Position numbers: made by a program
In this document: positions 12,001 to 24,000 of the stretch, piece after piece
Layout: each line of letters starts with the position of its first letter
Numbering within the stretch: the first letter of the stretch is position 1
DNA from: an uncultured Bacilli bacterium
Lineage (GTDB): Bacteria > Bacillota_I > Bacilli_A > RFN20 > CAG-631
NCBI GenBank assembly: GCA_947599835.1
Contig: CANQFQ010000001.1
Location: 2,423 to 66,422, forward strand
Reading direction: 5' to 3'
DNA: 64,000 bases

Positions 12001-15000
12001 TTCTATTAATGCACCAGAAACTCAACATTGCGGTGGATGGATTAATGTTGGAGGACTTGTAGGTATTAATTATCCTAAAGCAGTAATACGAAATGTTACA
12101 GTAAAAAATTCGAAATTTAATATTAATAGAGCAGGTTCTAGACTTGGTGGAATAGCAGGGGTAAATGAAGGCAATATTATAGATTGCACTGTTGAAAAAA
12201 ATAAATTCTTTTCTAATGGTGATTGCGGAGGTATTTGTGGTAAAAATTCTGCTATATTGCAAAATGTAACTTTTATTGGAGATAATTTTCAAAGTTGGTC
12301 TAGTGATATTCCATTTACTTATTGGATTGTAGGAAAAGATGATGATAAGAAAAAAAATGGTGGAAATAGATCGTGGGGCGGCATAGTTGGATATAATACT
12401 TTAAATGCAAGACTATTAGGCTTTAGGATTGAAAATATTTATATGCTGATAGAAGGCGATGAGAAAAAAACACCAAAAATCGGGTATGCAGTTGGACATA
12501 ATGAAGGCTATATTTGCGGTGCACAAAGTAATCAAGCACTAGGAAACAAGAAGGAAGCAAAAGAGATAAAGACTACTTATTGGTTTAGTAGTAGTAATGG
12601 ATTAATTGGGAGAAACGATAACGCAACAGTATGTGAAACATGCGACACAATTTAATTAAACATACTTTTTAAATGATATGAATCGTTCAAAGAATTTCAT
12701 TATTCTTGAGTAATTCTTATAAATTTTTAATAAGATTAAATTATTTTATTTCATAATTTTTCTCTATTGTTTAAATAAGTATTTAATGTATATTGCTATA
12801 ATGCCAAGTGAAGTTGATGAAACTTACTTGGCATACTTTTTGCTATTCATTGAAAATAAAAAGCAAAGAGGATATAATAAAAAAAGAATAAGTACTTATC
12901 ATATAGCAAAAATATAAAGGAGAAAAAGAAAATGAATGATATTGTAAAAAGAGGATACCAAAGTGGAATCAAAAAGATTTTTATGAGATTTCAATTGTTT
13001 TTTCTATTGCAATATTATCTTTTTGGTATGGCTAGTTGTTCATCCGCAAAGCATAAATATAAAGAACCAAATGAAGATGCCTACCAATTCTCATTTACAA
13101 AAGTTCAAGAGGGTTATAATATTGATGGAATAACTTTCGGTAATCAATCAAAAAAAGCAATGGATATTACTATACCTACTTATTATCAAAATGAACCTAT
13201 TTTAAAAGTTGTTTTTGATACGGGAACAATTCCAAGTAACTTAGAAGAAGTTTCAATTCAGTTTGAAGAAAATAGTCAAGTTAAAATGATTAATAAGAAA
13301 GCTTTTTCAATTTTTAAAGATAAAATTGTTTCTTTAAAATTGCCTCAAAGTGTTGAAGAAATACAATCTGATTCTTTTGCAGATTTTACAAAAATAAAAG
13401 AATTAACTTTACCAAGTTTAAATACGTATATTGGCGATTATTTTGGTTCAAGAAGTGCAGACGGAAATAAGCTTTCTGTTCCAAGCACTTTAAAGAAAGT
13501 TACCATTTTATCGGGAAATATACCAGATTTTGCTTTTTCTGAATGTAAAGATTTAATTACCATTGAAATACCCGATGATGCAACCGTAATTGGTGAACAA
13601 GCTTTTAGTTATTGTACTTCATTGGAACAAGTGATTTTATCAAAAAATAGTCAATTAGAAACCATAAAACGGTACGCTTTTATTAATTGTAAAGCATTAA
13701 AAGAAATGACAATTCCAAAAAGTGTGAATACCATTGGTGCCAATGCATTTTCTTTCTGCTCTTTATTAGAAACCATTAATTTTGCAACGGATAGTCAACT
13801 CGTAGCGATTGAAGATTCCGCATTTAGTTGTTGCACTTCCTTAGTTGCCATTGAAATGCCAAGTAGTGTAAAAACTATAGGTGAGTATGCTTTTTATGGA
13901 TGTGAGTTATTAAAAGAAATACATTTTGATGCTAATAGCCAATTAATTCGTATGGGAGAGTATGCTTTTCGTGCTTGTTTTTCTTTAATTTCTATTGAAA
14001 TACCTAAGGGTGTAAAAGAAATTAATAATTATACTTTTTTGGATTGTACAGCATTAAATGAAGTCAATTTTGCAACCGATAGTCAATTAGAAAGCATTCA
14101 CTATCATGCTTTTGAAAATTGTACTTCTTTAACATCTATTGTGATTTTGCGTAGTGTCATCACCATTGAAAGAGAAGCCTTTGTAGGCTGTACAAGTTTG
14201 ACGGTTTATTGTGAAACAGGATCTCAATCGGAACAATGGGAAAATGGATGGGATAGTAATAGACCTATATATTGGGAAAATGAATGGAATTATGATGAAA
14301 ATCATCATCCTCAAATGATTGCCTAAATTTAAAATAGAATTTGTTACATATTGTTCATGAATATCTAAAAAAAGATTGATTTTTCAAAAAAATAAAAATA
14401 ATCCAATTTTTTGTTGTAAATTGGATTTTTAGACTTTATAATTACTACAGAAATTCAAATTTTTAAAAATTATTTATTATAATCAATAATATTTTTTTTA
14501 CGTTTCATTTAAAGGGGAGTAGTGCGCATGAGCGATAATAAACAAAACAACATATGTTTAAATAAAGAGGCATTAAGGGAAAGATTTTCAAAGAATATTA
14601 GAGCCATTATTACTTATTTTGATTTTTCTGATAGTGAATTTGCCCGTAAGATAGATTGGAATTATAAAACATTTAAAAGTTATCTAGATGGTGTAAATTT
14701 ACCCAATCCTTATTTTATTGAAAAAGTATGTCAAGTGTTTGGGTATTCTATTGAAAATTTTTGTTCTGATGATTTTGTTCCGTGGGAAATACAAAAAAAA
14801 GAAAAAAACATCAATCCAACTTTTTTCAATGGACAATATTATGTGTATTATGCTTTTAACGAAAGAATCCATGAAGGATTAATGCAAATAAAAAATCACC
14901 ATGTATGTTTATATCTCACAAAATTTGACGAAGCGAAAGTTTTAGTCAGAGAGTTAGAAAAGTTAAACCATGATTTTCAAGAAATTTGGAAATATTCTAG

Positions 15001-21000: not shown

Positions 21001-24000
21001 GAATTTGCTTTACACATAGCAAAGGCATTTATCAGGACTATAAACAAGCGGTGTATTGGTTTGAACAAGCTGAAAAAAATGGTAGTTCAGTGGCCAAAAA
21101 GCATTTGGAGATTTTGAAAAAATATATAAATTAAAATTGATAAAAAGTGTGTAATGTCGACTATTTTCAGTCGACATTTTTTATCAAATTTGTAACAAAA
21201 AAAGTATAAAACTAGGGAAACGAGTTAATATTATATTTCTTCAATATAAACCTATGGTTAAGGGCTTTATGTATTTTGACATTTACAATGAACATTAAAA
21301 AAGCTCGATAAAATCAATGTTTTATCTATGTATTTTTTTGAAAATAAAAAAAATAGAAAACTATAGACAAATGATAAAAAATGTAGTATAATACCCGCAT
21401 AGTCATCAGCTTGAAATTTTTATTAGAAAAACATCATAAAAAGGGTTTAATAATTTTCAAAAAAACGATAGCCAAACAGTTTTTATTAAGAAAGGAGAAA
21501 CATAAATTAAAATGGATGTATAAAATTGTGTAAATGAATCATAATTATAAAAATCTATTGAATATAAAAAGAAAAAAACATTATTTACGATTTCATGAAA
21601 GGAGGTAACGTGCTGTGAGAAAATGCAAGCCTTTGTATATAATAAATAAAACTACAGCAAATAATTTTGAAGAAGTTTATGAAAAATTAAAACAAGGATA
21701 TTTAATGGAAAATATCAAACATAATTATAAAAAAATATTAGATGAAATCGTAGAAATCATTGAAATAGATGTAAAGGAATTAGAATGGAAAGAATATTTG
21801 AGAGGATATTGTTATGAAATAGGGTTATATAACGGGAAAAAAGATATGGAAACAGCCGTTTATTGGTATACTTTAGCATCATTGAGAGGATTAGCTAACG
21901 CACAATATGAACTTGGAAAATATTATGATAATAAAAATGAAATGGACAAAGCAAAGTATTATTATCAATTGGCTGAAGAACAAAATTTTCCGCACCGGAT
22001 TGTGTTCGTGAAAACGGAAGATAATTTAAAAAAAGATGAAGAGGATTCGGGTGCCGCACATCGAGTTTTTCCTCCAGCTCAAATAGCAAGGGTGCGCTTA
22101 TATTCAAGATCTACCCCTAAAGTTGCTATGATGTTAAATCATCAACATCCAAAAATGGTTAGAACGAAGAAAAAAGCAAAATTAAATCATGTGGTAGATG
22201 GAAAGGAACCTAGTAAGAAGTTTAATCAAATATAGTTTGAATCAGAAAGTAAAAAAAATAGAAAATAAAGGTATCCTTTGGATAAAAAAATAAAGATATT
22301 ATTTTGTGTTTTTAGCATGAAATAGTATCTTTTTTTTATATACAAATGCTGTCGAATCATGTATAATAGTAACTAAACTTAAAAAATAATTCTATATTTT
22401 AATTATTTTTTATAAAGTTGTGAAAGCAAATTGAAGGATGAATCTAAAGGAGGAACATTTAAAATCATGAGGCCTTCAATTTTATAGATAATGCTACGTT
22501 AGGAAAATAGAATGTATTTTAGTATAGTTTTAAAACAAAATTAAAAATGATGGGGGGAATGACGATGATATTGAATGATCATGTGAATAAAATCATGCTT
22601 AGCGAAGATACGACAAGTGAACAATTTAAAGGAAAAAATTATTCTATGGTTGTAATTTCGGATACTGTAAATAATATAAGTTATCGTACTTTTTTTAAAA
22701 CAAATATTCAACAACTTATCATTAAAAGCAGGGCAAGCATTTTGAAAATTCAAAAAGAAGCCTTTCGTAATGCAACGATTAAAAAAGTGCTTTTCGAAGA
22801 TCAAAACGCCTTTTTATTGATGCGATATGAAGATTATTTTGCCACCCCTTTTAGTGCGCGTCAACCTCATGTTTACATCAATGGTCAAGCACTCAAACAT
22901 AGGATAAATGACATTATCAATAATGAGATGCGATTATTACAACAAATAGAGCCTTATATTTTTTGTAATTTAAAATGGTTGACACAATTTACAATTAATG
23001 AAAGCATTTCTTCAATTAGGGAAGGCGCTTTTTGCTTTTGCTCTAATTTAAAAGAACTTTCTTTTTCGATTAATAAAGAAAATAAAAATATTAAATTATT
23101 AACACTCTATCCAAAAGCTTTTGCTGGTTGTGGAAATATTGAAAAAGTGCATGTTTCTAGTTTTGAAGTTTGGCTTAAGAAGATTACGACAAAAGAAATG
23201 CTCGATCGAAACGAAGAAAGTTGTACGGCTAGTCCACTATATTCAAGTAAAAATGCGAAGTTATTTATCAATCACCAACCGATTTCTGCATTTGAAGTAA
23301 TTCAAATTCCTGATAGTGTAGAAGAAATTCCACCCGCTGCTTTTTTACATCAACCTTTGAATCATGTTCGATTATCAAGTTCTTGTGCCGTTATTTTTGA
23401 GTTTGCTTTTTCTCAATCAACAATCAAAAGTTTGACTTGTCCTGAAAATGCTAAATTAAAAGAAATCGGTCAATGTGCTTTTGCAAATTGTGAACAATTA
23501 GCAAAAGTGGAGCTTCCTAATACAGTCACTTCAATCTATGAAAATGCTTTTAGTGATTGTCGTGCGTTAAATTTTATGTATATTCCGAATAATGTAACTA
23601 CCATTGAAAAAAATGCATTTCGAGGTTGCAAAGGATTAACCCTTTATTGTGCAGCTTTATCTAAGCCAGAAGGCTTTGATGATGATTGGAATGGTGGAAG
23701 ACCAGTTTATTGGGGTGTTGATAAAAAAGATATCATTATCTTACAAGGCATCCAATATTTAATAAAAAATGGCAAAGCGGTGGTTACAGGAACTACCACA
23801 GAATTTAAAAAAACAGATATTATTCCTTCAAAAATTAAAGTCAACAATCAATTTTATGATGTCATTCATCATCAAAAATAGTGCTTTTTGTTTCTTATAA
23901 AATAAACAGCAATCCATACCTCTTTCAAAGTCATCAAGAAAGAGGTTTTTTATTTGATGACAAGTCATTTTTTAAATTTTTCCCTATAGTAATAATAGGT

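Follow-up and report, generated by a model that had tools for sequence, protein, structure and literature searches.

A conserved gene cassette that sets a divergent ClpP peptidase beside a coupling-protein-like ATPase is present in a 64,000-nucleotide stretch of DNA from an uncultured Bacilli bacterium (GenBank assembly GCA_947599835.1, contig CANQFQ010000001.1, positions 2,423 to 66,422), referred to here at its full length as the window. The genes in question were read from 14.5–21.2 kb on the + strand, which holds all five members of the operon: a ClpP paralog, a protein termed here the adaptor, a soluble relative of the type IV coupling proteins (T4CP), a winged helix-turn-helix (wHTH) protein with an FtsK-gamma-like domain (the gamma protein), and a Sel1-repeat protein. 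Gene order and sequence conservation strongly support the view that the first four of these would form a functional unit. In our preferred interpretation, to which we give an even chance of being correct, they encode a DNA-associated, ATP-driven ClpP machine made up of a private ClpP, an ATPase-dead adaptor, a membrane-free VirD4-type ATPase and a gamma-type wHTH protein, and this machine probably acts in genetic conflict. The operon genes are as follows.

15509–16084, + strand: ClpP paralog (PF00574)
16105–17736 (open frame from 16081), + strand: adaptor, 543–551 aa, from its open reading frame (ORF) and an AlphaFold2 model
17748/17757–19496, + strand: soluble VirD4/TraG-family (FtsK/HerA superfamily) ATPase, the T4CP (PF02534, PF12696, PF10412)
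19516–20394, + strand: FtsK-gamma-like winged-helix protein, 292 aa, from a hidden Markov model (HMM) match and a structural model
20505–21134, + strand: Sel1-repeat protein, last gene of the operon (PF08238)

A preliminary description of this DNA, made from the sequence alone, had drawn the same five-gene unit, and the unit proved real: all five ORFs lie on the + strand, the ClpP, T4CP and Sel1 domains are recognized by Pfam and the wHTH by its model. The same description had called the operon an orphan, a label that does not hold, as it belongs to a conserved cassette of hundreds of species. Among species-representative genomes, 475 stretches encode relatives of the ATPase, two copies being present in a few cases, and gene order was counted by profile searches in 84 fetched loci from metagenome-assembled genomes (MAGs) of gut Clostridia and Bacilli. 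The adaptor gene lies directly 5' of the T4CP gene in 78 of the 84 loci. In 48 loci a ClpP paralog precedes the adaptor in the same orientation, at a distance to the T4CP gene that varies by only ~400 bases; the other 30 adaptor loci comprise seven cut by contig ends and 23 that have no ClpP paralog (23 of the 71 with readable upstream DNA). Eight further contexts, with independent gene calls, exhibited the identical order, with genes abutting or overlapping. The genes thus co-occur widely, and they do so outside of integrative and conjugative elements (ICEs) and prophages. Neither outcome that would have refuted the preliminary description, membership of a larger ICE or prophage or a lack of conserved co-occurrence, was observed. 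Chance juxtaposition of the cassette genes was considered and rejected.

At E ≤ 1e-30, a search of 1.84 billion representatives returned 267 members of the adaptor family, each standing for one 50%-identity cluster, and most of the best 150 are ~530–545 aa long. A full-length adaptor gene is carried by 7 of the 301 genomes from the window's order, two of the six genomes in its genus being among them, and by 12 of 251 from the order to which a MAG labeled Christensenella belongs. In the T4CP tree, members from the window's own order branch at two to four distinct positions, and the window and the congener G039 are paired on long branches with 100% support. A vertically inherited housekeeping operon was rejected because the cassette occurs in 2–5% of the genomes in two orders and because own-order members are scattered in the tree. 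The cassette proteins of the window and G039 are 25% (adaptor), 48% (ClpP), 52% (T4CP) and 38–46% (Sel1 proteins) identical, as against 64% and 71% for the flanking C39-ABC and PepP proteins.

The first gene of the operon encodes a member of the ClpP family (PF00574, E = 5.5e-43) with the Clp protease fold and its Ser-His-Asp triad. Across 48 members of the paralog family the motifs GMxASM, LIHQP and DTDRD show conservation of 90% or more, and GMVASM, LIHQP and DTERD align with the canonical ClpP of the genome. The canonical protein is encoded elsewhere (C10) and scored 270 bits in a profile search of the genome, compared with 147 bits for the cassette paralog. The paralog falls under every NCBIfam ClpP cut-off (best subfamily 144.6 vs 228 bits; TIGR00493 115 vs 308.6 bits). 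It is missing ~10 N-terminal residues of the genome's canonical ClpP, leaving it with a shortened N-terminal axial segment; the first ~10 residues of canonical ClpP form the axial gate. The ClpP paralog is the sole cassette protein with a hydrophobic segment, which is located in the fold core around the active-site Ser. No transmembrane segment is present in any cassette protein.

The adaptor has no match in Pfam, NCBIfam or PADLOC. Its AlphaFold2 model (predicted local distance difference test score (pLDDT) 86.4, predicted template modeling score 0.80) consists of a helical repeat N-terminal half and an alpha/beta C-terminal half, and Foldseek searches with this model returned the AAA+ domains of FlrC/NtrC1, ClpC1, ClpB, Lon, RuvB, HslU, ClpX and ClpA (E = 9e-6 to 7e-4). 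At the P-loop position the family carries SDSxY, and the window protein NSDLF, in place of the Walker A sequence GxxGxGK[ST]; the Walker B motif (hhhhDE) is likewise missing, with no DE after strand 3. Because an AAA+ fold is modeled in a protein with neither Walker motif, the adaptor is assigned as an AAA+-like pseudo-ATPase, in agreement with the earlier proposal. Comparison of the adaptor profile with the Sel1 protein by hhalign gave a weak match (E = 0.0067, probability 6%), so that the Sel1-like nature of the adaptor N-terminal domain is a matter of motif resemblance only.

The window adaptor ends in NFGF-COOH, and its last two residues, G550 and F551, are invariant in an alignment of 60 homologs. 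A [Y/F/I/L]-G-F-(G-G) motif is found within the last ~15 residues of 75 of the 78 adaptors, placing it in a C-terminal tail and not in a surface loop. ClpX (IGF), ClpA (IGL) and ClpC (VGF) dock into hydrophobic pockets of ClpP by this tripeptide signature, and the resemblance suggests that the adaptor tail is probably a ClpX/ClpA-type docking motif for ClpP, written here as ΦGF, where Φ is a hydrophobic residue. The ClpP had been described as having no ClpX/ClpA-type partner, which is probably wrong given the adjacent pseudo-AAA+ protein with this C-terminal motif. The type of tail also varies with the presence of a private protease: it is aromatic, [Y/F]GF, in 46 of the 48 cassettes with an adjacent ClpP, and aliphatic, [I/L/V]GF, the canonical ClpX/ClpA type, in 13 of the 23 cassettes lacking one (Fisher p = 2e-7, with no formal correction for phylogeny). 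On the T4CP tree, the cassettes that lack ClpP and have I, L or F tails are split among five or more clades, and one ClpP-less pair is nested within a clade of ClpP-bearing, YGF-tailed cassettes.

The T4CP matches PF02534 (1.2e-42), PF12696 (1.5e-23) and PF10412 (1.3e-14), and has both the nucleotide-binding and all-alpha domains. Its Walker A (GKT) and Walker B (LDEFG) motifs are invariant in 26 homologs, and its best sequence match in the PDB is Cag5/VirD4 (4.9e-16). Against the nearest curated family, NF045973 (the "CD1115 family" of Firmicute conjugative plasmids), it scored 223.8 bits, under the cut-off of 250. The protein is clearly derived from Gram-positive conjugative coupling proteins. 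It has no membrane anchor: the maximum Kyte-Doolittle hydropathy over 19 residues is 0.93, and this maximum is below 1.6 in 25 of the 26 family members and 1.63 in the remaining one. Hundreds of homologs of ~560 aa, at 41–45% identity, are present in gut MAGs labeled Clostridia, Christensenellaceae, Anaeroplasmataceae and Mollicutes. The best listed T4CPs of plasmids in PLSDB are 24–29% identical to the window protein, and no member of the cassette family was found in that database; two plasmid relatives that were inspected (25.6% and 29.1% identity) are longer, at ~690–730 aa, and lie beside conjugation-type genes.

The 292-aa product of the fourth gene has no Pfam match, and its residues 4–52 match an HMM built from the N termini of genes that lie downstream in the cassettes (E = 5.5e-12). 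Across the 84 loci the gene 3' of the T4CP gene varies in length; 46 of 77 such genes cluster via one common domain, N-terminal in most, and 28 of 72 members of the downstream-gene family match PF09397, FtsK_gamma, while the C-terminal domains are variable. FtsK gamma domains bind KOPS (FtsK-orienting polar sequence) sites and activate XerD. The model of the 292-aa protein shows a winged helix at residues 1–60 (pLDDT >90) and is of low confidence beyond residue 100; Foldseek with this model returned generic wHTH regulators, and in homolog searches the C-terminal part had homologs only within its own lineage. The earlier wHTH assignment therefore stands on the modeled winged helix, and is made more specific as FtsK-gamma-like. 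In the congener G039 (L092, C1 6711–9035, − strand), the T4CP is a 774-aa protein with a fused gamma-like domain at residues 598–682 (E = 2e-6) and an acidic D/Y-rich tail at its C terminus. Homologs repeatedly have an acidic linker behind the gamma domain. In the 292-aa protein an acidic DFD-repeat linker, DFDDFDDFDDNDDSDDD, is encoded by short tandem repeat DNA at 19810–19863. The gene directly after the T4CP gene in loci L017, L021, L032, L052 and L057 encodes a long (542–861 aa) FtsK/SpoIIIE-family protein, which may be either the housekeeping FtsK or a paralog particular to the cassette.

Beyond these four genes, the recurrent downstream neighbors are short FtsK_SpoIIIE+gamma proteins and a 230-aa Metallophos protein, and the recurrent upstream neighbors are small DUF1292 proteins or HTH_3 regulators. 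Many cassettes (L085/L086 13155–14219; L003, L089–L091) continue with a gene for a 354-aa soluble FtsK_SpoIIIE+gamma protein and one for a Metallophos phosphoesterase of ~230 aa, and in one cassette genes for ADP-ribosylglycohydrolase and Metallophos-ASCH proteins are present as well. In its complete form the cassette may comprise more than four genes.

We infer the physical assembly, DNA dependence, substrates and biological role of the proposed machine as follows. A ring of adaptors would dock on ClpP by its C-terminal ΦGF(GG) tails in the manner of the ClpX, ClpA and ClpC loops, making use of the private ClpP where one is present and of the housekeeping ClpP otherwise. The adaptor cannot be the motor because it has neither Walker A nor Walker B, and the ATP-driven motor would be a T4CP hexamer, to which the adaptor would be tied by its helical repeat domain and by the N-terminal domain that the ATPase has in place of a membrane anchor. 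The gamma-like wHTH protein would bring the assembly to DNA or to a partner bound there, and the outcome would be a DNA-associated, ATP-dependent protease that degrades DNA-bound proteins. A role in conflict with invading DNA is suggested by the patchy spread of the cassette, its fast divergence and the variability of the gamma proteins in their C-terminal domains; removal of DNA-bound or DNA-linked proteins, whether those of an invader or endogenous, is a possible role.

Several observations weigh against this interpretation. About one third of the cassettes have no adjacent ClpP, and the core function may not need to include a private protease; use of the housekeeping ClpP by these cassettes is an assumption, three of them keep the YGF tail, and the test for association of tail type with ClpP linkage had no formal correction for phylogeny. 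The docking motif of ClpX and ClpA is a loop and not a C terminus, and we know of no precedent for a RecA-fold hexamer that pushes its substrate through a distinct AAA+ ring without ATPase activity. In 28 loci the flanking genes are mostly housekeeping ones; integrases are not among the recurrent neighbors there, nor are T4SS (type IV secretion system) and relaxase families, and defense genes are almost absent, with a single locus for a defense-associated reverse transcriptase (DRT). PADLOC applied to 149 flanking ORFs returned FtsK-like matches (SspH, mad8 and HerA models), which are the cassette's own genes, two reverse-transcriptase matches, taken to be the one DRT locus, and two weak single matches. 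This lack of a defense-island context weakens the defense interpretation and calls for caution on such a role.

A functional version of the proposed machine, tentative and clearly less probable than the general form, is defense against mobile elements by triggered proteolysis. Here the pair of T4CP and gamma protein would sense foreign DNA or a DNA-linked protein and the adaptor tails would open the ClpP pore in the way that the acyldepsipeptide (ADEP) antibiotics do, so that either unregulated proteolysis aborts the infection or a protein of the invader is destroyed. Such a role accords with the patchy, accessory distribution and the scatter of own-order members across the T4CP tree, with the very fast divergence between congeners and the variable C-terminal domains of the gamma proteins, with the presence of two cassettes in some genomes, and with the location of the window cassette in a species-specific island beside a TerY-P-like von Willebrand factor A (vWA)/kinase module and an integrase. 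It is opposed by the mostly housekeeping flanks of the 28 loci, with their one defense locus, and by the PADLOC results. In PADLOC-DB v2.0 the P-loop region of the T4CP weakly matches mad8 (8.5e-8), DinG and HerA, and there is no match for the ClpP, adaptor, wHTH or Sel1 proteins. With this weak P-loop match as its only yield, the search bears out the earlier remark that the combination is no catalogued module. A defense role, then, is something that we infer, as the preliminary description had also done.

Conjugative coupling proteins naturally recognize relaxase-DNA adducts, and the machine may therefore capture proteins attached covalently or tightly to incoming DNA. On this basis the cassette could encode a new class of ClpP machine and serve as an immunity system in which the soluble coupling protein, a RecA-fold FtsK/HerA-superfamily hexamer guided by the gamma protein, captures DNA-linked proteins of invaders and feeds them to ClpP via the dead AAA+ docking ring; candidate captured proteins would be conjugative relaxases, phage terminal proteins and rolling-circle Rep proteins. 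We consider this specific form unlikely.

Equally doubtful is the alternative that the adaptor, T4CP and gamma protein form a DNA-handling core for chromosome or replicon processing, such as Xer-type dimer resolution or segregation, with ClpP as an occasional neighbor or regulator instead of a structural partner. It would account for the 23 of 71 readable loci without a ClpP paralog and for the FtsK_SpoIIIE+gamma genes that recur downstream, and it draws on the established roles of FtsK gamma domains at KOPS and XerD. However, cassettes without ClpP still carry the ΦGF tail, which in them is shifted toward the canonical IGF/LGF; ClpP is adjacent and co-oriented in 48 loci, with the ~400-base variation in distance to the T4CP gene noted above; and a distribution over 2–5% of the genomes in two orders is unlike that of housekeeping segregation genes.

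It is very improbable that the cassette is the remnant or mobilization module of an integrative element, whose T4CP would work in trans with a T4SS located elsewhere or supplied by another element and whose other genes would be cargo. The descent of the T4CP from Gram-positive conjugative coupling proteins and an integrase 10 kb upstream are in its favor, but there is neither a VirB4 nor a second T4CP in the window or the genome: the one T4CP of the genome is the cassette's own, and the sole AAA_10 match is the chromosomal membrane-anchored FtsK. No relaxase was found among the window ORFs or in the flank scan, relaxase families not having been searched for genome-wide. The claim that this is not a conjugation module, based on the lack of relaxase and VirB4 genes in the window, is thus borne out. 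Moreover, T4SS, relaxase and integrase families are not among the recurrent neighbors of the 28 loci and do not appear in the eight annotated contexts, the membrane anchor is lost in the 26 T4CP members tested (one at the borderline value of 1.63), and no PLSDB member exceeds 29% identity. A degraded ICE fragment, which the preliminary description had offered as another option, is unlikely, since throughout the family the catalytic motifs are conserved and show no decay. A phage-derived block with the ClpP-like gene as its prohead protease is the least credible explanation, as had been argued before, since the weak match to the ClpP-related head maturation protease NF045542 (75.4 bits vs a cut-off of 120) and one relative located 6 kb from a terminase and portal are outweighed by the much higher score of cellular ClpP models (144.6 bits), by the lack of capsid, portal and terminase genes in the window, and by searches of IMG/VR (2.9 million contigs) and a phage collection (50,697 records), which yielded no cassette family member but only matches of 19–33% identity.

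The boundaries of the operon and the genes next to it are listed below.

14522/14528–15331, + strand: putative helix-turn-helix (HTH; XRE-like) regulator, 267–269 aa, an ORF with a weak PezA HTH match
15372–15399, + strand: AT-rich hairpin resembling an intrinsic terminator, with U8 after it, at the end of the regulator gene, from sequence and fold energy
15449–15477, + strand: sigma-70-like promoter TTGATT-17-TATGAT ahead of the cassette, from a consensus scan (9/12 matches)
21153–21178, + strand: intrinsic terminator closing the operon, from a scan (10-bp stem with 4 G-C pairs, then a T-run)
21615–22235, + strand: second Sel1-like paralog (PF08238, 1.1e-6, below cut-off)

Each of the five closely spaced genes is preceded by a Shine-Dalgarno sequence. 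The ribosome binding site (RBS) AAAGGAGA precedes the ATG of the ClpP paralog at 15509, and the same sequence lies 7 nt 5' of the ATG at 16105, making this the likelier start of the adaptor compared with 16081; the best start of the T4CP, with an RBS and ATG, is 17757. The terminators and promoter by which the operon had been delimited were all recovered. The downstream terminator, a strong one, was found by scan. The hairpin at 15372–15399 has a folding energy of −18.4 kcal/mol (z = −5.0 vs shuffles), and escaped the consensus scan, being so AT-rich that it contains fewer than three G-C pairs. Promoter-like sites are no commoner across the region than in shuffles, and the 15449–15477 site alone is weak evidence. 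The regulator at 14528–15331 is putatively transcribed separately from the cassette. Its ORF and separate terminator agree with the earlier description of an upstream XRE-family regulator, while the XRE label itself is weakly supported: the protein has no Pfam or NCBIfam match, and its best PDB sequence match is a weak one of residues 23–91 to the PezA HTH (E = 0.11). No homolog of it was found in any of the 84 related loci, and it is not conserved with other cassettes, some of which are preceded by unrelated small HTH_3 regulators.

The Sel1 protein at 20505–21134 (PF08238, 1.3e-38) has an ortholog (38% identity) at the same position in G039, after the fused T4CP gene, and this is followed there by an ortholog of the second Sel1 gene (46% identity). 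The second gene has its own promoter at 21364–21392 (11/12 matches in the scan) and is probably associated with the cassette. Sel1 proteins are present as had been described; however, they lie 3' of the T4CP gene in just 8 of the 84 loci and, being kept in the congener, are best regarded as lineage-specific add-ons and not as part of the core.

The genome is 1.40 Mb in 27 contigs and 93% complete, and the G+C content is ~28% throughout the window. Upstream of the cassette are genes for a tyrosine recombinase, the vWA/kinase module, a lethal-factor-like zincin, a MACPF protein and a BspA-LRR protein. The 3' side of the cassette holds the second Sel1 gene, genes for a leucine-rich repeat protein and the C39-ABC protein, and then the housekeeping genes pepP, ybeY, cdd, era and recO. 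Three congeners keep C39-ABC/pepP (the most divergent, pepP alone) with unrelated genes upstream; in G039, the fourth, the cassette occupies the syntenic position. As the congeners differ 5' of the conserved C39-ABC/pepP genes, the cassette block is assigned to a species-level accessory island. The C39 gene at 23881–25329 encodes a C39 peptidase/ABC-membrane protein that has no ATPase domain; it lies beside pepP in three of the four congeners, with 41–64% identity, and is absent from the most divergent, G008. Being conserved beside pepP, it is not part of the variable island.

Other genes were noted farther along the window. Three large co-oriented ORFs at 41695–49830 (− strand) encode proteins of 869 aa and 916 aa, which have no Pfam match, and an 872-aa ResIII/DEAD helicase; these could be another helicase-based restriction or defense module. 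ThiF-family E1-like and PP-loop ATPase genes at 51229–54524 are followed by a gene for a 552-aa protein that has no Pfam match, and a 208-aa protein with collagen triple-helix repeats is encoded at 55638–56264 (− strand) beside a two-component system.

The components of the cassette are known folds, and their wiring, in which ClpP is joined to a dead AAA+ ring, a T4CP motor and an FtsK-gamma protein, is without a described counterpart in the literature searched. No description of the adaptor or of the four-part combination was found in Pfam, NCBIfam, PADLOC or that literature, and a paper on FtsK-like defense domains makes no mention of ClpP or VirD4. To our knowledge, all known ClpP partners are active AAA+ unfoldases. 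If the proposed machine is real, it would represent a new architecture for regulated proteolysis, combining a dead AAA+ docking ring with a conjugation-type ring ATPase, and a new fate for a coupling protein outside of conjugation. The link to FtsK gamma suggests proteolysis aimed at DNA-bound proteins, which is poorly understood in bacteria and would be relevant to plasmid and phage defense and to the removal of protein-DNA adducts. Because the carriers are mainly uncultured gut Clostridia and Bacilli, the cassette would account for a sizeable unannotated part of gut-microbiome biology. The prediction made for the tail motif is directly testable.

Among known systems, the BREX protein BrxL, a Lon-like protease, and ietAS likewise combine an NTPase with a serine protease, in modules that are accessory and patchy in distribution. 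The cassette differs from them in its parts and architecture, has no methyltransferase or other BREX components, and shows no sequence relationship to them by PADLOC-DB v2. With ClpXP, ClpAP and ClpCP it shares a ClpP-family serine protease with an intact triad, tight gene linkage, and an adjacent AAA+-fold protein that bears a hydrophobic-Gly-Phe motif. Unlike in those systems, the AAA+ protein of the cassette has neither Walker A nor Walker B, and its motif lies at the extreme C terminus, nearer to proteasomal HbYX or PafE tails; the only ATPase predicted to be active is the RecA-fold, FtsK/HerA-superfamily T4CP, the ClpP lacks the N-terminal gate residues and scores under the NCBIfam ClpP cut-offs, and a putative DNA-binding wHTH protein is included. 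The T4CP resembles VirD4, TraG and TrwB in its PF02534, PF10412 and PF12696 domains and invariant Walker A and B motifs, Cag5 being its best solved relative, and departs from them in lacking an N-terminal transmembrane anchor and any linked T4SS or relaxase in the window or among recurrent neighbors, in its 24–29% identity to the best listed plasmid T4CPs with a score under the CD1115 cut-off, and in having a pseudo-AAA+ adaptor as its partner in 78 of 84 loci. Finally, the cassette resembles FtsK and SpoIIIE in that an FtsK/HerA-superfamily motor of hexameric type is joined with a gamma-like winged helix, to which it is fused in one congener. It is unlike them in that its motor belongs to the VirD4 clade and not to FtsK alpha-beta, its gamma domain mostly resides in a protein of its own whose C-terminal domains vary, and its proteins are soluble, with the motor-wHTH pair linked to a protease.

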